A stretch of 64,000 bases of DNA from contig PTJY01000004.1 of the NCBI GenBank assembly GCA_002937505.1, positions 125,186 to 189,185 on the forward strand, written 5' to 3'. How positions within the stretch are numbered: the first letter of the stretch is position 1; the number at the start of each line of letters is the position of its first letter. Positions 49,829 through 58,359 of this stretch are shown in pieces. The translations under genes and the position numbers were made by a program. The notes beneath the pieces are model-generated. The model had not been told where the DNA came from and made no database searches. It worked only from the letters and a program-made list of their open reading frames with translations. The stretch is from Alphaproteobacteria bacterium MarineAlpha12_Bin1 (GTDB taxonomy: Bacteria > Pseudomonadota > Alphaproteobacteria > UBA6615).

Positions 49829-50866
49829 TTAGTCCCAATTTTCGGCATAACCAAAATTTCGTGTAGCATACTCAGCATGAAAATTTTCAAATGTTATAGG
49901 TGGGTATTTTTCAGGATTACTCGCATCTTTACAGGATGGAAGGCACTTAAGAACAGTATCTACATTTGGGTAAAAGAAAAAGATATTTGAATAACGGCCC
50001 TCGTTTGTGTCAGCTAGTACTCTATGGGGGGTTGCTATGTATTTGTCATTGATCCATCTGACAAGTGTGTTCCCTGTATTAACAAGAATTCCTTCAGGTA
50101 TAACTGGTTGCTTTATCCAGTTGCCTGACGGTGTCAAAATTTCCAACCCAGGTCGTGTGGCTGGAGGAATTAGAGAGAGAAATGATATGTCGGTATGGCC
50201 TGGAAGACTTATGTGGTTTTTCTCCTCTTTAATAGGGGGATAGTAGGCAATTCTAGACATTGAGCTTGATCTTTGAAAAAAAGAGCTAAAATAGTTTGCG
50301 GGCATATCTAGGGATAATGCGAGAGGGGGAAGAAGTTTGTGTGCCAAATTTTCAAAAGCAATATGAAACTCCATAAATGATTTTTTAAGTCCTGGCACAA
50401 CTATTTCATCAGGCCATTTGTTGTGTCCTCTAAACCGTCTGTTTTTGCCAAAGTCAGGGTCTTCAGGGTCTAAGTCAAAGGTAAACTTAAATGCTTCGCT
50501 CAATTGAGGCTTGGTTGCTGTTTTTCTCTTCTCGAAAGTATCATTATGAATTGATACATTTGGTGGCATATAGCCGCATTGATGTCGGTTCATTCTAACT
50601 TTTAGCTTCTCAGTCTCAGGTAAATTAAAAAATTTTCTTGAGGATTCAAAACACCGTTCGACAATAGTGTTATCCATGCCGTGATTTACAATAAACATAA
50701 ATCCAATCCCACTGCAGGCGTGATAAATAGACTCAGCGACAACGCTCAATTGATTATCGTCTCCTGAGAGCATTGGGCCTACATCAATAACAGGTATTTC
50801 CTGTTTCGTATTTTCATAAGATTTTTGTGAATCTAATGATTTATTGGTGTCTAGTTGAACGCTCAT
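49829..50866 (-). CDS. 2OG-Fe(II) oxygenase superfamily protein (isopenicillin-N-synthase-like)
   Basis: HxD...H facial triad (GHTDISFLSLI ... TPHRVL) in a DSBH-sized C-domain preceded by the IPNS-type N-domain. Confidence 0.6.
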   Translation of the reverse strand: MSVQLDTNKSLDSQKSYENTKQEIPVIDVGPMLSGDDNQLSVVAESIYHACSGIGFMFIVNHGMDNTIVERCFESSRKFFNLPETEKLKVRMNRHQCGYMPPNVSIHNDTFEKRKTATKPQLSEAFKFTFDLDPEDPDFGKNRRFRGHNKWPDEIVVPGLKKSFMEFHIAFENLAHKLLPPLALSLDMPANYFSSFFQRSSSMSRIAYYPPIKEEKNHISLPGHTDISFLSLIPPATRPGLEILTPSGNWIKQPVIPEGILVNTGNTLVRWINDKYIATPHRVLADTNEGRYSNIFFFYPNVDTVLKCLPSCKDASNPEKYPPITFENFHAEYATRNFGYAENWD

Positions 50867-51124: not shown

Positions 51125-51841
51125 ATGAACAAAAGTAATGATAAATTAACACCGTTAGTGTCAACGAACGCAGAAGTTAGAGCTTTTTTGAATCAAGTTG
51201 CAAAGATTCCTAAAACTGAAAAAGGCTCTAGGGGAAGATTGCTATTTGCTATTGACGCAACTCTAAGTAGGGAATCTACATGGGATTTAGCTTCGCAAAT
51301 ACAATCTGAAATGTTTGTTGCTACTAAAGATCTTGGAGGGCTTGAGGTTCAGCTGGCTTTTTATAGAGGGTTCGGTGAAATGAAGGTCACAAAATGGCTT
51401 TCTAATCCAGATGAACTTGTAAAAAAAATGAACCTGGTTCGCTGTGTGGCTGGTCGAACACAAATTCGTAAGGTTTTTAGACATACGTTGAAAGAGACTA
51501 AGCAGAAAAAAGTTAATGCTCTTGTATTTGTTGGAGATGTTATTGAAGAAGACATAGATGAACTTGGTCACTTGTCTGGACAGTTGGGACTCATAGGAAC
51601 TCCAGTTTTTATATTTCAAGATGGAGAAGAGCCAATTTCAAAAAGAGGCTTTCAGGATATCGCTAGACTATCCAATGGTGCTTACAGCTCTTTTAATGCT
51701 GATAGCGCAGCACAACTGAGTGAATTATTGCGGGCTGTTGCTGTTTTCTCTGCTGGAGGAGTTTCGGCTCTTACTAATTATGGCAATAAGATTGGGGGTA
51801 GAGCACTACAGATTAGCAATCAGATGACGAAACAGAAATGA
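51125..51841 (+). CDS. Cytoplasmic von Willebrand factor A (VWA)-like domain protein
   Basis: Rossmann-like beta-alpha pattern with a MIDAS-like DxTxS at the first strand (LLFAIDATLSRES) and a hydrophobic strand ALVFVGD. 238 aa, no signal peptide. Confidence 0.5.
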   Translation: MNKSNDKLTPLVSTNAEVRAFLNQVAKIPKTEKGSRGRLLFAIDATLSRESTWDLASQIQSEMFVATKDLGGLEVQLAFYRGFGEMKVTKWLSNPDELVKKMNLVRCVAGRTQIRKVFRHTLKETKQKKVNALVFVGDVIEEDIDELGHLSGQLGLIGTPVFIFQDGEEPISKRGFQDIARLSNGAYSSFNADSAAQLSELLRAVAVFSAGGVSALTNYGNKIGGRALQISNQMTKQK

Positions 51842-51851
51842 AATTGATGTC

Positions 51852-52577
51852 ATGATTCCTACATTAATACTAGTTTTAGCCTTAATTATTGGAATTTATT
51901 TTATTGCTAGATGGTGGGTTCAGGCTGATCCAAAGCAACTTATCAAGGCTCTTAGATGGGCAGGTGTAATACTAGCTATTATTATCGCTATAGCTATATT
52001 TATATCTGGAAGATGGCATTGGCTGCCCGGATTGTTCTTTTTCCTTTTACCTTGGTTGCTAAGAGCAAGAACATTACAGACCATAAATAAGAATGCTCGA
52101 GGTCCTACAGCAGGTCAATCCAGTCACATTTCTACTAAATACCTAAAAATGAAACTTGACCATGATAGTGGCGAGATGACGGGGCAAATTATAAATGGAA
52201 AGTTTTCTGGAAATAATTTGAGTGAACTAGACTTACCAAAATTGATTGAATTGTGGAAAGAATGTACAGCCAATGATGAACAATCTCGTGTTGTTTTGGA
52301 AAATTATTTAGATAGGGATTTTTCTGATTGGCGTGAATTGGCCGGAATTGGCCCTCGTCATGAGCAATCATATAGCAGTTCAGATAGTCCATGGGCAGGC
52401 GATTTAATGAGTGCGTCTGAGGCAAGAGAGATCCTTGATGTTAGTGAGAACGCATCAGGATCTGATATTGAAAAGGCCTACAGAAAAGCAATGAAAAGAG
52501 CTCATCCGGATCAAGGGGGTTCAGATTGGATGGCCGCAAAAGTAAACCAGGCAAAAGATATTTTACTTGGAAAATAG
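51852..52577 (+). CDS. Membrane-anchored J-domain (DnaJ-like, DjlA-type architecture) protein
   Basis: Two N-terminal TM helices. C-terminal ~60 aa is a J domain with the HPD motif (DIEKAYRKAMKRAHPDQGGS). Start 10 nt after the VWA gene stop. Confidence 0.7.
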   Translation: MIPTLILVLALIIGIYFIARWWVQADPKQLIKALRWAGVILAIIIAIAIFISGRWHWLPGLFFFLLPWLLRARTLQTINKNARGPTAGQSSHISTKYLKMKLDHDSGEMTGQIINGKFSGNNLSELDLPKLIELWKECTANDEQSRVVLENYLDRDFSDWRELAGIGPRHEQSYSSSDSPWAGDLMSASEAREILDVSENASGSDIEKAYRKAMKRAHPDQGGSDWMAAKVNQAKDILLGK

Positions 52578-52690
52578 CAACAAATTCTTACTTTCTATTA
52601 CTTGCTATTCTTCTGACCAATATGGCACAAGAAGACTAGTTGTTTAATGTATATAATTATCAATTGATTAACAGAAGTGGTATTGTCTTT

Positions 52691-53560
52691 ATGACTGCAA
52701 AAGTTCGGAAAGCTATATTTCCGGTTGGAGGACTGGGTACTCGATTCCTACCTGCGACCAAAGCGATGCCTAAAGAGATGCTTCCAGTTGTTGATAAGCC
52801 TCTTATTGAATATGCTGTTGAAGAGGCATATGAATCTGGTATAGAGCAGTTTATATTCGTTACCGGAAGAGGAAAAGTTATCATCGAAGATCACTTCGAT
52901 CATAGTTTTGAACTATTTGAAACACTAAAAAATAGAGATAAAAATTTTCAGCTAGATTCACTTAGCACCTCTAAGTTTGAACCAGGACAAATTTCTTACG
53001 TCAGACAGCAGCAGCCACTCGGTTTAGGGCACGCTGTGTGGTGTGCACGACATTTAATAAAAGATGAACCCTTCGCTATTTTGTTAGCTGATGATTTGAT
53101 TTTAAGTAAAGTGCCCTGTCTTAAACAACTAGTTGAGGCTCGCGAAGAAAATGGAGGTAACATTCTTGCTGCAATGACGGTTCCCTTAGAGCAAACGTCA
53201 AGATATGGAATTATTGAAGCGTTTAACTCAAGGGGCAACTTGCACCATATTAAGGCTTTAGTTGAAAAGCCTGATCCTTCTGACGCGCCTTCCAATTTGG
53301 CTGTGGTTGGAAGATACATTCTCAGTTCAGATATTTTTAGTGAACTTGATAAAGTAAAACCCGGAGTAGGCGGAGAAATACAACTCACAGACGCAATTAC
53401 AAAATTGATGGTTAGAGATGAAATATACGGTCTTACTTTCGAAGGAAGAAGGTTTGATTGTGGTGATAAGCTAGGTTTTTTAGAGGCTAATATTGCTTTT
53501 GCGCTTGAACGAAAAGATCTAGGTGATTTTCGAACTGTTATTTCTAAATATGGAGGCTAA
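52691..53560 (+). CDS. galU: UTP--glucose-1-phosphate uridylyltransferase
   Basis: N-terminal KAIFPVGGLGTRFLPATKAMPKEMLPV, the canonical GalU motif. Start at the internal ATG 52691. Confidence 0.85.
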   Translation: MTAKVRKAIFPVGGLGTRFLPATKAMPKEMLPVVDKPLIEYAVEEAYESGIEQFIFVTGRGKVIIEDHFDHSFELFETLKNRDKNFQLDSLSTSKFEPGQISYVRQQQPLGLGHAVWCARHLIKDEPFAILLADDLILSKVPCLKQLVEAREENGGNILAAMTVPLEQTSRYGIIEAFNSRGNLHHIKALVEKPDPSDAPSNLAVVGRYILSSDIFSELDKVKPGVGGEIQLTDAITKLMVRDEIYGLTFEGRRFDCGDKLGFLEANIAFALERKDLGDFRTVISKYGG

Positions 53561-53563
53561 ACT

Positions 53564-54889
53564 TTGCGGATAGTAATGGTAGGCGCAGGTTACGTCGGCT
53601 TAGTTTCTAGCGCTTGTTTTTCTGAGTTTGGATGGGATGTTATCTGTGTTGATAACGACCCAAAAAGAATTGATGCTCTTACTCATGGCAAATTACCAAT
53701 TTATGAGCCAGGTTTAGATGAATTAGTAAAGCGAAGCGTAACAGAAGGAAGACTAAGTTTTTCTACCGATCTAGCTTCCTCTTTGACTAATACACAAATT
53801 ATATTTATTGCGGTGGGAACTCCATCACGAAGAGGTGATGGACACTCTGATCTATCTTATGTTTTTGACGCTGTGAAAAATATTTCTATGAATGCAGAAC
53901 CTGATGCATTGGTAGTAACCAAATCTACTGTTCCTGTTGGTACTGGGAGAGAAATTCAAAAAATACTTAACAAAGAAAACCCTGACTCGCGACTTCTAGT
54001 TGCAGCAAATCCCGAGTTTTTAAGAGAGGGTTCTGCGATTGATGATTTTATGGGTCCTGACAGAATTATTATTGGTGCTGAATGTGAAAAATCCATGGAT
54101 TTAATGAATAGGGTCTATAACCCGTTGTCCTTGAAAGATATCCCGATTGTTTTTACGTCGCTGGAGTCAGCTGAAATGATAAAATATGCATCTAATTCAT
54201 TTTTAGCTACTAAGATTACCTTCATTAATGAATTTGCTGATTTATGTGAAAAAGTTGGAGCTAATGTACAGGATGTGGCCAGGGGGATCGGTCTTGATGA
54301 TCGAATTGGAAAAGAATTTCTCAATGCTGGCCCTGGCTATGGGGGGTCCTGTTTTCCTAAAGACACTGCGGCATTAGTAAAAACTGGTCAAGATGCTAAG
54401 TCACCGTTATCCATTGTAGAGAAGGTCATTGAGGTAAATGAAAATAGAAAATTTTCTATGGTTAAAAAAGTTATCGATTCATGTGGTGGTTCTGTTTTAG
54501 ATAAGACTGTAGGCGTTCTTGGTCTAACATTTAAACCTAATACGGATGATATGCGCGACGCTCCTAGTCTGGTCATTATTCCTGAGTTGATACATGCTGG
54601 GGCAAATATAAAAGTTTACGACCCAAAGGGCATGGAATCAGCCCACAATTATTTTAGTGATTTAGTTTGGTGTAATGATGCTTATGAAGCAATGAAGGAT
54701 TCTGATGCACTAGTTATATTAACCGAGTGGAATCAGTTTCGCGCGCTTGATTTGGAGAAAATGAGATCTCTTTTAAGAGCTCCATTAATCATAGACATGA
54801 GGAATATCTATAATCCAGAGGATATGAAGAGCGCATTATTTGATTATATATCCATAGGGCGTGAGCCTGTTTATGGAGCCAAAGAGTAA
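53564..54889 (+). CDS. ugd: UDP-glucose 6-dehydrogenase
   Basis: N-terminal GAGYVGL Rossmann, catalytic Cys region (GGSCFPKD), UDP-binding C-domain. TTG start 8 nt after GGAGG. The galU stop lies within the RBS. Confidence 0.85.
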   Translation: MRIVMVGAGYVGLVSSACFSEFGWDVICVDNDPKRIDALTHGKLPIYEPGLDELVKRSVTEGRLSFSTDLASSLTNTQIIFIAVGTPSRRGDGHSDLSYVFDAVKNISMNAEPDALVVTKSTVPVGTGREIQKILNKENPDSRLLVAANPEFLREGSAIDDFMGPDRIIIGAECEKSMDLMNRVYNPLSLKDIPIVFTSLESAEMIKYASNSFLATKITFINEFADLCEKVGANVQDVARGIGLDDRIGKEFLNAGPGYGGSCFPKDTAALVKTGQDAKSPLSIVEKVIEVNENRKFSMVKKVIDSCGGSVLDKTVGVLGLTFKPNTDDMRDAPSLVIIPELIHAGANIKVYDPKGMESAHNYFSDLVWCNDAYEAMKDSDALVILTEWNQFRALDLEKMRSLLRAPLIIDMRNIYNPEDMKSALFDYISIGREPVYGAKE

Positions 54890-54899
54890 GTATTAAGCT

Positions 54900-56288
54900 A
54901 TGCCAATTCATTCCTTCAACCCCTCTATATTAAGAGAGTATGACGTTCGTGGAATTGTTGGAGAAACATTATTTGATGATGATGCGCATATGTTAGGCAT
55001 CACATTTGGAAGTCGTCTAATAAAAGAGGGAGGGAAGAGCGTAAGTGTTGGATATGATGGACGGTTAACTAGCCCTAACCTCACTGAAGCCCTAATTGAT
55101 GGTCTGATCTCGTGTGGACTTAAAGTGTTTAATATTGGTTTAGGTCCGACACCTATGTTATCGTTTTCTACCCATTATCTTTCTTCAGACGCTGGCATAA
55201 TGGTCACTGGAAGCCATAATCCAAAAACTTATAATGGCTTTAAATTTTCTTTAAAAGGTAGGCCTTTCTATGGTCATGATATTTTGTCTCTAGCTGCTCT
55301 AGCAGAGTCTGGTGATGTTGAATCTGGTAAAGGGGTGTTGGAGAAGGTAAACATAGAAGATGACTATCTAAAACGGTTAACAAGAGATTTCTCTAGTCTT
55401 AGCTCTAGAGCTATATCCTGGGATCCAGGAAATGGTGCTACAGCTATCCTTCTTGATAAGTTATGCAAGATTATCCCAGGTCGTCACCACATAATTAATG
55501 GCTGGATAGATGGTAATTTTCCTAATCATCATCCAGATCCAACCATTCCTGAAAACTTAAGCCAGTTGATCGGATCTGTTCATGACAACTCATGTGAACT
55601 TGGTTTTGGGTTTGATGGCGATGGAGACAGAATAGGTGTGGTTGATGCAAAAGGAAGAATTATTTGGGCAGATCAATTAATGATGTTCTTTGCTAGAGAA
55701 ATTCTGAATAACCATCCTGGTGAGACAATAATCGCTGATGTTAAATCTAGTCAGGCGTTATTTGATGAAATTAAACGTTTGAATGGTACTCCACTTATGT
55801 GTGGCACAGGACACTCCCGAATAAGGTCGAAAATGATAGAGTTGTCAGCGCCATTAGCAGGTGAAATGAGTGGCCATATATTTTTTAATGATAGGTACTA
55901 TGGTTTTGATGACGCTTTGTATGCTTCACTTCGGCTTTTGTCGTTTTTGGACATGAATGACACTCCTCTTGACAAGCTTTATGATAGATTGCCTGTTTTG
56001 TTTAACACCCCTGAAATACGATTTTCGTGTCCCGAAGAAATGAAGTTCGAAGTTGTTGAGCAATTATCAAATACTTTGGATGAAGATACCAGAGATATAT
56101 CTAGAATTGACGGTATAAGAGTAAAAACTAATGATGGTTGGTGGCTTTTGAGGGCTTCAAACACACAAGACGCATTAGTTGCGAGATGCGAAAGTTATAG
56201 CGAAAACGGACTTAAAAACCTTATAGATGAATTAGTTAAAAATCTTTCAGCATTTGGCTTGTCGTTACCCAATAATATTATAGATTAG
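54900..56288 (+). CDS. Phosphomannomutase/phosphoglucomutase (alpha-D-phosphohexomutase family)
   Basis: Active-site Ser loop TGSHNP, metal-binding DGDGDR, sugar-binding GEMSGH. Confidence 0.85.
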   Translation: MPIHSFNPSILREYDVRGIVGETLFDDDAHMLGITFGSRLIKEGGKSVSVGYDGRLTSPNLTEALIDGLISCGLKVFNIGLGPTPMLSFSTHYLSSDAGIMVTGSHNPKTYNGFKFSLKGRPFYGHDILSLAALAESGDVESGKGVLEKVNIEDDYLKRLTRDFSSLSSRAISWDPGNGATAILLDKLCKIIPGRHHIINGWIDGNFPNHHPDPTIPENLSQLIGSVHDNSCELGFGFDGDGDRIGVVDAKGRIIWADQLMMFFAREILNNHPGETIIADVKSSQALFDEIKRLNGTPLMCGTGHSRIRSKMIELSAPLAGEMSGHIFFNDRYYGFDDALYASLRLLSFLDMNDTPLDKLYDRLPVLFNTPEIRFSCPEEMKFEVVEQLSNTLDEDTRDISRIDGIRVKTNDGWWLLRASNTQDALVARCESYSENGLKNLIDELVKNLSAFGLSLPNNIID

Positions 56289-56378
56289 TAAGGTACACTG
56301 AAAAGGTGTGCTTTCCGACTCCTTTCTAGTAAGGTATAGATCTAAGGTAATTATTAACAACTGAAAGGAGGTGATCCG

Positions 56379-56471
56379 ATGTCTAACGGATTGGTGATGG
56401 CAAAAGCTATATTACGAGGCACTGGTGACCCTCAATCGATGGGTGGATATATTCGACACCTAAGGGTCTGA
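56379..56471 (+). CDS. Candidate 30-codon small ORF behind a near-perfect Shine-Dalgarno (MSNGLVMAKAILRGTGDPQSMGGYIRHLRV)
   Basis: AAAGGAGGTGATCC (56364-56377) is a 14-nt complement of the 16S 3' tail. It sits 7 nt before the ATG. A rho-independent terminator follows ~125 nt downstream. No homologue recognised. Confidence 0.25.
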   Translation: MSNGLVMAKAILRGTGDPQSMGGYIRHLRV

Positions 56472-56595
56472 GGTTTACTGCATGGGTGTATCGTATTCTG
56501 GTGTTAGGCATGTATAATCGTCAATATGTGTGTCTAAAAGCCAAGAAAATTTTTTAATATAAAAATTTTTTAAAGATCACCTAACGTTTTTAAAA

Positions 56596-56631
56596 GTGCT
56601 GTCCTTCTTTTGTAAGGATGGCACTTTTTTT
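56596..56631 (+). terminator. Rho-independent terminator
   Basis: GTGCTGTCCTT-cttttgt-AAGGATGGCAC (11-bp stem with two G.U pairs) followed by TTTTTTT. Located between convergent genes. Confidence 0.6.
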
Positions 56632-56645
56632 GCTATTGGAATTAT

Positions 56646-57089
56646 TTATTTCCTTTTAATAAACACAGAAGATTTGAGTGTGAGTACAATATTCCCATTC
56701 TGATTAGTTAAATCACCAGTTGTAGTCACAATACCCAGTTTTGGTCTGCTTTTAGAGGTTCTTTTATCCTTAATCACTAAACTAGCACTCAGTGTGTCTC
56801 CTGGTCTGACTGGATTTAGCCACTTCAGATTTTCAACACCAGGAGAGCCCATACTTTGTAAATTCAGCAACAGACCCTCACAAGCCAAGCGCATCCAAAT
56901 GCTTGCAGTATACCAGCCACTTGCAATTATACCTTTGTATAAAGAACTTTTAGCATAACTTTCATCGATATGGATGAGCTGGGGGTCGAATTTCTCTGCG
57001 TAATTAATCATAGACTTACGATTTAATTTATAGCTTCCTAAATCATATTTAGTTCCTATAACTAAATCTTCATAATAAATATTTGACAT
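56646..57089 (-). CDS. MaoC-like (R)-specific enoyl-CoA hydratase / hot-dog fold dehydratase
   Basis: Hot-dog fold MaoC motifs (IHIDESYA...GIIASGWYT). Confidence 0.7.
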   Translation of the reverse strand: MSNIYYEDLVIGTKYDLGSYKLNRKSMINYAEKFDPQLIHIDESYAKSSLYKGIIASGWYTASIWMRLACEGLLLNLQSMGSPGVENLKWLNPVRPGDTLSASLVIKDKRTSKSRPKLGIVTTTGDLTNQNGNIVLTLKSSVFIKRK

Positions 57090-57150
57090 TCATGTCACTT
57101 TTAAAAAGTTAGTAATTAAATATATTAGTGAAAAGGATTATATTAATTGT

Positions 57151-58359
57151 CTATTCAGGAGTTAGCACAAAACACTTATTTCCTTTGAAAAGAAGTTGTT
57201 TGCAAAGAGAACGTGCAGAACTCCCATCTAGCCCCATGAAGCGAACACGAAATAGAGTGTTTGATTTGTGATTTTTGGGTTGAATTTTTAAAAAAGCAGT
57301 AGATGGTAGTCCTAGAAGTAGATGAGCAGTGTTACTGGCAGCGACATACGCGTTGTCATACTTTTTAAAGGTGCCAATTTGGATGCCCCAATTATTTTCA
57401 TAATTATTAGGCGAATTAATTTTTTCTTTGGTTATTTCTGCTGTTTTGGCCACTTCAGATTTATTTGATATCCATGGCTTAGATATTGGGCGAGCTGTCA
57501 GTGTGCTGAGTGCTCTAGCTTTATTCCAGTTACGATTAAAAAGCTTTTTCATGTGTCGATCTCGTCTGACAGCACTTTTTCCACCAAACACAACTCCAAT
57601 TAGCCGGACATTTCCTCTTACTGAAGAGGCAACTAAGTTAAAACCGGACGCACGAATATACCCAGTTTTAATACCATCAGTGCCTTTATAGTTTCTTAAA
57701 AGAGAATTGTGGTTAATATATTTTTTGCTCTTGTGAGTGAAAGATGGGGTGGCGAAGAACTTATAGTATCGATTGTGTTTGGTTATTAAGGCTGCAGCAA
57801 GGATTGACATGTCTTTTGCAGTAGTTTTTTGTCGTTTGTTATACAGTCCAGACGCATTTCTAAATTCTGTTTTCTTCATACCTAGTGAGTGAGCTTTTTT
57901 CGTCATTGCTTTAGCAAAACTAATTTCAGTACCACTTATCGATTCAGCAATTACTGTAGCCACATCATTAGCAGACTTTACAGCTAGAGCATTTATAGCA
58001 TTTTGGACGGTAATGAATTCACCCGGTTTGAGACCTAGTTTGGAAGCAGGTTGTCCTGCTGCTCTTTGAGAAACTCTTAATCTTTGATTTAACCTTAAGG
58101 CTCCTTCTTCTAAGGAATCAAAAACCATGTATAAAGTCATCATTTTAGTTAATGACGCAGGGTTTTTTAACTTATTAGCATTTCGAGAGTAAAGAGTTTT
58201 GCCGCTAGTGGCGTCAACTATAATTGAAGCATACTTTGCAGAAGCAAGCGTTGTAATTGGAGCGGTTAGAACTACCGATAAAAGAAACACTTTTAGATAA
58301 GATTTGATTTTTAAGTTATGAATTTTGGAACACCCCAATGATAAATATTTCAAAATCAA
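57151..58359 (-). CDS. D-alanyl-D-alanine carboxypeptidase (S11, PBP5/6-like) with C-terminal SPOR domain
   Basis: Signal peptide. SxxK (SLTKMMT), SxN (SANDVA), KTG (IKTG). C-terminal ~80 aa SPOR-like (WGIQIGTFKKYDNA...RVRFMGL). Confidence 0.75.
   Translation of the reverse strand: MILKYLSLGCSKIHNLKIKSYLKVFLLSVVLTAPITTLASAKYASIIVDATSGKTLYSRNANKLKNPASLTKMMTLYMVFDSLEEGALRLNQRLRVSQRAAGQPASKLGLKPGEFITVQNAINALAVKSANDVATVIAESISGTEISFAKAMTKKAHSLGMKKTEFRNASGLYNKRQKTTAKDMSILAAALITKHNRYYKFFATPSFTHKSKKYINHNSLLRNYKGTDGIKTGYIRASGFNLVASSVRGNVRLIGVVFGGKSAVRRDRHMKKLFNRNWNKARALSTLTARPISKPWISNKSEVAKTAEITKEKINSPNNYENNWGIQIGTFKKYDNAYVAASNTAHLLLGLPSTAFLKIQPKNHKSNTLFRVRFMGLDGSSARSLCKQLLFKGNKCFVLTPE

Follow-up and report, generated by a model that had tools for sequence, protein, structure and literature searches.

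We describe a pair of adjacent genes, here called P1 and P2, in a stretch of 64,000 nucleotides (nt) from Alphaproteobacteria bacterium MarineAlpha12_Bin1 (GenBank assembly GCA_002937505.1, contig PTJY01000004.1, positions 125,186 to 189,185); the whole of this stretch is referred to below as the window. P1 encodes a cytoplasmic protein with the VWA fold and an apparently intact metal ion-dependent adhesion site (MIDAS), and P2 encodes a membrane-anchored J-domain protein of class C. We found no earlier description of a class-C J-protein with a near-obligate VWA partner. We tentatively propose that the inner membrane carries, on its cytoplasmic side, a dedicated co-chaperone module made up of these two proteins, in which P1 would be the adaptor and P2 would recruit DnaK, a reading that we rate as quite possible and just short of probable. 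A preliminary description of this DNA, made from its letters alone, had placed two open reading frames (ORFs) with a 10-nt spacer here, and they are present at exactly the following coordinates.

51125–51841, + strand: P1, a 238-aa cytoplasmic VWA-fold protein, from the ORF list
51254–51268, + strand: first MIDAS-type motif of P1, D44-A-T46-L-S48, a DxTxS variant of the canonical DxSxS
51458–51460, + strand: MIDAS threonine T112 of P1, in the invariant motif C107-x-x-G110-x-T112-Q113
51536–51538, + strand: MIDAS aspartate D138 of P1, in the invariant motif G137-D138-x-x-E141-E142
51842–51851, + strand: 10-nt spacer between the P1 stop and the P2 start
51852–52577, + strand: P2, a 241-aa polytopic inner-membrane class-C J-domain protein (Pfam DnaJ; AF2 model with a predicted local distance difference test score, pLDDT, of 80; family alignment)
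51858–52061, + strand: P2 membrane region, with hydrophobic segments at residues 3–19, 37–53 and 58–70
52113–52346, + strand: P2 cytoplasmic middle domain, approximately residues 88–165, with three beta-strands and three helices
52407–52568, + strand: P2 J-domain of the Tim14/Pam18 type, residues 186–239, with HPD at 52503–52511 followed by GGS

The evidence that carries the pairing is the linkage of the two genes across genomes. When P2 was used as the bait in metagenomes, with three context look-ups added, we obtained 83 loci with P2 identities of 36–66%. Of the 74 loci (among the 83) with usable upstream sequence, 73 have P1 upstream of P2 and in the same orientation, cultured Kiloniella included. 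The preliminary description had named a lack of synteny in related genomes as grounds for refutation, and by this count the pair is strongly syntenic. The gap between P1 and P2, assessed at 105 loci, has a median of 9 nt and falls between −4 and +15 nt at 78 of them. In two of the 73 linked loci (L140 and L146), about 2 kb has been inserted between the genes and the common strand has been kept; the insert in L140 (2152–3848) consists of two ORFs of 139 and 307 aa. With P1 as the bait and one genome per species, 80 loci were collected, and 33 of these have a full-length P2 downstream of P1 in the same orientation, including loci from the marine clade, Azospirillum, Ferruginivarius, Maricaulaceae, a Thiotrichales metagenome-assembled genome (MAG), Glaciecola, Paraglaciecola, Brumicola and Psychromonas. 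The remaining 47 loci belong to the Reyranella/Enhydrobacter group, in which the P2 profile has no match within 5 kb of P1; more permissive models, of the J-domain only and of the middle domain only, likewise revealed no J-domain in 15 sampled loci of this type. The MIDAS residues of the Reyranella-type P1 proteins are intact, and an OsmC-like ORF or an SDR gene comes next instead of P2 (examples of P1 without an adjacent P2 are L022–L064 and others, e.g., L056:4995–5699 in Reyranella massiliensis). From the 73 of 74 loci with an upstream P1 and the 47 loci with P1 only, it follows that P2 practically always comes with P1, while P1 can stand without P2.

The pair is also kept as a unit among unrelated neighbours, in Glaciecola, Paraglaciecola, Psychromonas, Thiotrichales, Azospirillum and Maricaulaceae. 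In the gammaproteobacterial loci the pair itself is the only conserved part, and its flanks are mutually unrelated: a TonB receptor with SDR and AhpC genes, DUF3083, a GGDEF gene, or a gene for a large VWA protein.

Some variant arrangements were observed as well. In the Thiotrichales MAG, a 752-aa protein with a C-terminal Pfam VWA domain is encoded 4 nt after P2 (L065:6443–8701), giving the order VWA, J-protein, VWA. A short contig (L166:1–2031) carries the C-terminal part of a P2, a P1 of 304 aa and an ORF weakly similar to the P2 membrane region, an arrangement that may be a tandem duplication of the pair. In cultured Brumicola pallidula DSM 14239 (L072:5190–6564), P1 and P2 are each split into two ORFs, which may reflect pseudogenisation or sequencing frameshifts. 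A complete P1–P2 pair is found on one IMG/VR contig (L169:4082–5663), where a provirus boundary or host DNA is possible.

P1 and P2 are both real, conserved genes. A word-indexed search returned 2057 homologs of P1 at E ≤ 1e-3, and an exhaustive profile search gave 2319 clusters (50% identity), of which 464 reach E ≤ 1e-30, most of these with lengths of 230–250 aa; the P2 family profile retrieved 1311 proteins at E ≤ 1e-5. The names attached to these homologs in their sources are only ‘VWA domain-containing protein’, ‘hypothetical protein’, ‘molecular chaperone DnaJ’ and ‘J domain-containing protein’. For P1, the label ‘VWA’ could not be taken on trust, because no sequence model recognises the protein: no Pfam family matches it at E ≤ 1 (the VWA, VWA_2, CoxE and ViaA models included), NCBIfam holds no match, and the PDB gives none with either the single sequence or the family profile. 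Assignment to a sequence family was therefore rejected, and only fold comparison succeeded, revealing the alpha/beta fold of VWA domains; the matches in BFVD are generic VWA folds with an identity of 17% or less. P1 is thus a sequence-orphan subfamily of the VWA/MIDAS superfamily, assigned by its fold and its MIDAS site. Its N-terminus is not hydrophobic, which places the protein in the cytoplasm, and in these respects the preliminary description of a cytoplasmic VWA/MIDAS-like protein was accurate. The alternative raised there, that P1 might prove to be a known VWA protein of the CoxE or chelatase type, does not hold, given the empty sequence-family searches and the lack of a MoxR-type AAA+ gene among the annotated neighbours in the window and in loci L081 and L082.

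P1 consists of a conserved N-terminal helix (residues 15–26), the VWA core (37–194) and a C-terminal extension of two helices (195–236). D44, T46 and S48 are invariant in an alignment of 37 P1 sequences. In a broader set of about 150 representatives of 50%-identity clusters, D44 is conserved in 141 of 141 aligned sequences, T46 in 141 of 141 and S48 in 141 of 142. T112, which is a threonine in 149 of 151 representatives, lies 68 residues past D44, which agrees with the spacing in the integrin I-domain. All 148 aligned representatives have D138, and 144 and 142 of 146 have E141 and E142, respectively; R49, W53, C107, G110 and Q113 are, like E141 and E142, essentially invariant, and these residues lie at the C-terminal ends of strands. 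Because the residues of the MIDAS-type face are essentially invariant across the representatives, we regard this face as the functional site of the P1 family. Judged from the sequence, the site is intact and canonically spaced, and metal binding is predicted. Beyond this face, no enzymatic motif was recognised in P1 by Pfam, NCBIfam or fold comparison. Remote members of the P1 family, of approximately 320 aa, with an N-terminal extension, an intact MIDAS and no accompanying J-protein, were also seen on two phage-like contigs (L165:3001–3966, P0332; L167:1668–2627, P0324), set in runs of short co-directional ORFs together with a phage-type DNA polymerase (phrog_17) and an exonuclease (phrog_1218), which suggests that they are phage-encoded.

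P2 ends in a J-domain with an HPD motif, as had been recognised from the letters. The Pfam DnaJ model (PF00226) matches residues 193–238 with 32.8 bits against a gathering score of 27.8 (E = 7.5e-8). HPD (H218-P219-D220), which is flanked in the model by helices at residues 203–217 and 225–239, is invariant in 30 members of the P2 family, as is the longer HPD-x-GGS. Only the J-domain part of DnaJ models aligns, and the G/F-rich, zinc-finger and DnaJ C-terminal domains are all missing, so that P2 is a J-protein of class C (type III). Among J-domains, the best match by far is that of the mitochondrial import motor: a search with the single P2 sequence found yeast Tim14 (2guz_A) at E = 4.2e-8, against 0.005 for the next J-domain, and the family profile scored Tim14 at 58.7 bits (E = 6e-15), against 32.2 bits or less for all other J-domains. 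Both proteins have the HPD-x-GGS signature and a short helix III. The J-domain of P2 is therefore of the Tim14/Pam18 type, by sequence and by fold, and is the closest bacterial look-alike of that import-motor protein. The DjlA-like architecture suggested in the preliminary description has to be given up. The NCBIfam equivalog model for DjlA (NF006948) reaches 28.2 bits against a cut-off of 162 and covers only residues 181–221 (helices I–II), and neither sequence models nor a fold search found a TerB-like domain in the middle region. Tim14-like J-domains in other architectures (136–412 aa) occur on IMG/VR contigs L170–L176, including a giant-virus MAG (L170).

In the N-terminal region, where two transmembrane (TM) helices had been noted before, the hydrophobic segments and the distribution of lysine and arginine favour three spans. 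The AF2 model has helices at residues 2–24, 27–52 and 55–82, and the mean number of lysines and arginines is 3.3 in loop 1 and 5.1 after segment 3. By the positive-inside rule, P2 probably has three spans, with the N-terminus out, the C-terminus in and a cytoplasmic J-domain. The model of the middle domain is confident, at a pLDDT of about 90, and this domain has no detectable relatives by sequence or fold. It contains an exposed, invariant hairpin, L102-x-H104-D105-x-G107-x-M109-x-G111, in which D105 is the sole invariant acidic residue of P2 outside the J-domain. Residues 165–187 form a disordered linker before the J-domain.

How might these two proteins act together? J-domains that bear HPD dock ATP-bound DnaK and trigger ATP hydrolysis, so that DnaK clamps a nearby polypeptide. 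Because P2 is membrane-anchored and its HPD is invariant, it is most naturally read as a protein that recruits and activates DnaK. We envisage that P2 would insert into the membrane by three spans (N-out, C-in), with its middle domain and Tim14-type J-domain facing the cytoplasm, and that the J-domain would activate DnaK locally at the inner membrane. P1 would be co-translated with P2 from one mRNA and act as its dedicated soluble partner. The specificity of P1 would come from the MIDAS (D44, T46, S48, T112 and D138) and the residues that surround it (R49, W53, C107, Q113, E141 and E142). This site might capture an acidic side chain, for which the most economical candidate is D105 of P2, in the ‘LDHDSGxMxG’ hairpin; such binding would dock P1 onto P2. 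P1 would then serve as a client-selecting adaptor for the membrane-tethered DnaK, in the manner of the VWA partners of MoxR AAA+ chaperones. The earlier suggestion of an uncharacterised DnaK-recruiting module thus keeps its base, namely, a conserved and uncharacterised pair with an intact MIDAS and a membrane J-protein with an invariant HPD, while the interaction with DnaK and the delivery of clients belong to the proposed part.

The immediate surroundings of the pair in the window are as follows.

49829–50866, − strand: 2OG-Fe(II) oxygenase gene, divergent from P1
50867–51124, no strand: upstream intergenic region, common to P1 and the divergent oxygenase gene
52640 or 52691 (two possible starts) to 53560, + strand: galU, directly 3′ of P2 (Pfam)
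53564–54889, + strand: ugd (Pfam)
54900–56288, + strand: pgm (Pfam)

The flanking genes are housekeeping genes, with a PanE-like reductase and the 2OG-Fe(II) oxygenase upstream and galU, ugd and pgm downstream; a DD-carboxypeptidase gene on the opposite strand follows pgm (block 52640–58359). The genome nearest to the window is that of an uncultured marine alphaproteobacterium, a MAG obtained at Station ALOHA (L001), with a P1 identity of 95%. Long AT-rich regions had been reported on both sides of the pair. This is correct for the upstream region, which has 258 nt and a GC content of 21.7% against 37.9% for the window; the spacer between P2 and galU, in contrast, has just 62–113 nt, depending on the galU start. 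The promoter of the pair presumably lies in the upstream region, where a promoter scan gave no sigma-70-like site on the + strand and nothing above shuffle expectation. Between P2 and galU, no terminator was detected by a scan of low power, which found nothing above shuffle expectation. There is indeed no Shine–Dalgarno sequence ahead of P2, as noted before in support of a probable coupling of the two genes. Its absence is not diagnostic, because the Shine–Dalgarno core is present at only 20 of the 53 ORF starts in the window, and we therefore rejected the missing ribosome-binding site as a sign of coupling.

Nor is the pair a self-contained unit of two genes, as it had seemed to be. Of the 78 testable pair loci, 34, from several lineages, have a genuine mipZ gene immediately 5′ of P1 and in the same orientation (L002–L021, L018, L049, L081 and L084–L158; e.g., L003:4027–4974 and L081:2225–3067). 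Its identity is supported by a full-length match to Pfam MipZ (E = 1e-101) and by an E value of 1.6e-68 to Caulobacter MipZ (2xit). The gaps between mipZ and P1 range from about −3 to +150 nt, often from −3 to +25 nt, and the stop and start codons often overlap. In many relatives, mipZ occupies the place of the upstream intergenic region of the window, and in the Reyranella clade it is found 1–4 kb upstream of P1. There is no mipZ in the whole window, nor is one adjacent to P1 in the closest relatives (L001 and L004); these three have lost the mipZ–P1 adjacency. On the other side, galU follows P2 directly in 45 of the 78 testable pair loci; none of the loci with P1 only has galU at this place. 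The block galU-ugd-pgm after P2 is shared with Kiloniella litopenaei (L081:4812–8747) and L082 (4828–8735), and Kiloniella shares the opposite-strand DD-carboxypeptidase gene with the window. Because mipZ and the galU block recur around the pair, the ancestral alphaproteobacterial arrangement was likely mipZ-P1-P2-galU-ugd-pgm, with P1-P2 as its invariant core. A gene of approximately 735 aa is found farther upstream of mipZ and P1 in 34 loci, in both P2-containing and P2-less clades (L002–L013 and L026–L060; e.g., L056:384–2609). It is a candidate molybdopterin-oxidoreductase-like gene on the strength of an N-terminal Cys motif, and it marks an old synteny block. Our literature search found no paper on a VWA/J-protein pair, on mipZ-linked VWA or DnaJ genes, or on a mipZ-VWA-J cluster.

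Several observations weigh against the proposed co-chaperone module. P1 lacks an adjacent P2 in about 47 loci of the Reyranella/Enhydrobacter type and on the phage-like contigs, and because it occurs alone, its function is not strictly dependent on a neighbouring P2. At one locus with P2 (L153), the 494 nt of upstream sequence contain stops in all frames and no P1. In a mirror-tree comparison, the divergences of P1 and P2 correlate with r = 0.90–0.915, which is no higher than the P1–MipZ and MipZ–GalU controls, so that there is no signal of P1–P2 co-evolution above the phylogenetic background. The middle domain of P2 has no recognisable fold that would hint at a function. Furthermore, contact between P1 and P2 and the involvement of DnaK are both points that we infer, and the D105–MIDAS contact is purely hypothetical. 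A comparison of P2-linked with P2-less P1 proteins yielded 11 discriminating positions, but the P2-less proteins all belong to one tight clade, so that these positions are inseparable from clade identity and say nothing about a P2-contact surface. Read at their strongest, the background-level correlations and the occurrence of P1 without P2 would fit genes that have no functional link and are neighbours by shared descent only. This reading is disfavoured, and we give it next to no weight, since linkage in 73 of 74 loci at a median distance of 9 nt extends across alpha- and gammaproteobacteria whose flanks are otherwise unrelated. The same linkage serves equally well if the roles are reversed and P1 is the client of membrane-tethered DnaK and P2, being held, sequestered or switched (e.g., between an open and a closed MIDAS), with its own activity as the output. 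P1 is the more conserved of the two proteins (mean p-distance of 0.42 against 0.57 for P2), and its presence alone in the Reyranella clade and on phage-like contigs would suit a P1 with the core activity and a P2 that is an accessory regulator. The data fit a client and an adaptor alike, and P1 has no recognised enzymatic motif outside the MIDAS face; we consider the reversal rather unlikely.

The neighbouring genes suggest other roles. The frequent proximity of the pair to mipZ, directly upstream in several lineages and at a distance in the Reyranella clade, could mean that P1 and P2 are an accessory of MipZ-dependent positioning of the division site, tethering or remodelling MipZ or a MipZ partner at the membrane through DnaK. 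We consider this improbable: mipZ is absent from 43 of the 78 pair loci, including all of the gammaproteobacterial ones, as well as from the window and its closest relatives; we found no published link; and the adjacency can be inherited synteny, because the P1–MipZ distances simply track phylogeny. The proximity to galU could in turn point to the regulation of envelope polysaccharide or UDP-sugar metabolism. E. coli DjlA together with DnaK activates the Rcs capsule pathway, which provides a precedent, and the window, Kiloniella and L082 all have galU-ugd-pgm after P2, with no terminator found between P2 and galU in the window. This seems to us still less probable, because P2 fails the DjlA membership tests, because the gammaproteobacterial, Azospirillum-upstream and soil-clade contexts have no galU block, and because galU adjacency is seen only in alphaproteobacterial lineages that are related, where inherited synteny can also account for it. 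A stress- or defence-sensor role had been floated in the preliminary description. The remote P1 relatives on L165 and L167, the Tim14-like J-domains on viral contigs and the pair on L169 would speak for an anti-phage or stress-sensor defence module or a mobile element. However, no PADLOC family matches P1 or P2 at E ≤ 1, P1 has no PHROG match and PHROGs match only the J-domain of P2, and a scan of viral contigs with the P1 profile was empty. The flanks are housekeeping genes in stable synteny, and the loci inspected contain no integrase or transposase genes and no border repeats. We therefore regard a defensive or mobile nature of the pair as very improbable.

What would a co-chaperone module of P1 and P2 mean? 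The specificity of Hsp70 comes from class-C J-proteins, very few of which in bacteria have a known partner or client. The pair is tractable, being small and composed of one soluble and one membrane protein, with obvious point mutants (HPD, the MIDAS residues and D105), and it is present in the cultivable genera Azospirillum, Kiloniella, Ferruginivarius, Glaciecola and Psychromonas. The recurrent linkage to mipZ raises a possible connection of membrane-tethered DnaK to the placement of the division site. Because the J-domain of P2 is the closest bacterial relative of that of Tim14/Pam18, a client of P2 would bear on how the import motor was assembled from bacterial parts. We further speculate, with rather little confidence, that the mitochondrial Pam18/Pam16 J-module has its sister group or its ancestor in the P2 family of free-living bacteria, and that the native partner of P2, a MIDAS-type VWA protein whose gene would often be co-transcribed with mipZ, reveals a role of the import-motor J-protein before endosymbiosis. 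If this is true, that J-protein was once part of a membrane-tethered Hsp70 device that captured specific cytoplasmic clients through a metal-dependent adaptor, and the combination ‘J-protein plus VWA adaptor’ would be an unrecognised kind of Hsp70 targeting system, analogous to the MoxR–VWA systems.

Among known systems, E. coli DjlA resembles P2 in having an N-terminal membrane anchor, a cytoplasmic middle domain and a C-terminal J-domain, and it recruits DnaK to the inner membrane. It differs in having one hydrophobic segment and a TerB-type middle domain where P2 has three segments and no TerB-type domain, and the pattern that follows HPD in P2 is that of Tim14 and not that of DjlA. Tim14/Pam18 (human DNAJC19/DNAJC15), the J-protein of the presequence translocase-associated motor, shares with P2 the type of J-domain and the HPD-x-GGS motif. 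Its single TM segment, however, lies directly before the J-domain, whereas in P2 three hydrophobic segments come first, and a middle domain some 80 residues long and a disordered linker separate them from the J-domain. The partner of Tim14 is the J-like Pam16, whereas the linked partner of P2 is a VWA protein; no Pam16-like gene is adjacent to P2, where the conserved neighbour is the VWA gene, and the Pam16 Pfam match of the window P2 is under threshold (17.5 against 30.3 bits). As a bacterial protein, P2 also lacks the context of the TIM23 translocon. Caulobacter reportedly has an inner-membrane J-protein similar to Pam18, ‘TimB’, said to have been described by Clements and colleagues in 2009. 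As reported, TimB is like P2 an alphaproteobacterial inner-membrane protein with a Pam18-like J-domain. We know of no report of a VWA partner or a mipZ linkage for Caulobacter TimB. A further comparison is with the chaperone–adaptor pairs of MoxR AAA+ and VWA proteins, RavA-ViaA, NorQ-NorD, CbbQ-CbbO and CoxD-CoxE. P1 differs from their VWA members in matching none of the Pfam VWA, CoxE and ViaA models, and no AAA+ gene was found among nine scanned neighbours in the window and the called genes of L081 and L082, no dedicated AAA+ search having been made in the other loci. In these pairs the VWA protein works with a MoxR AAA+ ATPase, whereas the partner of P1 is a J-protein, and the machine implied by the pair is therefore Hsp70.

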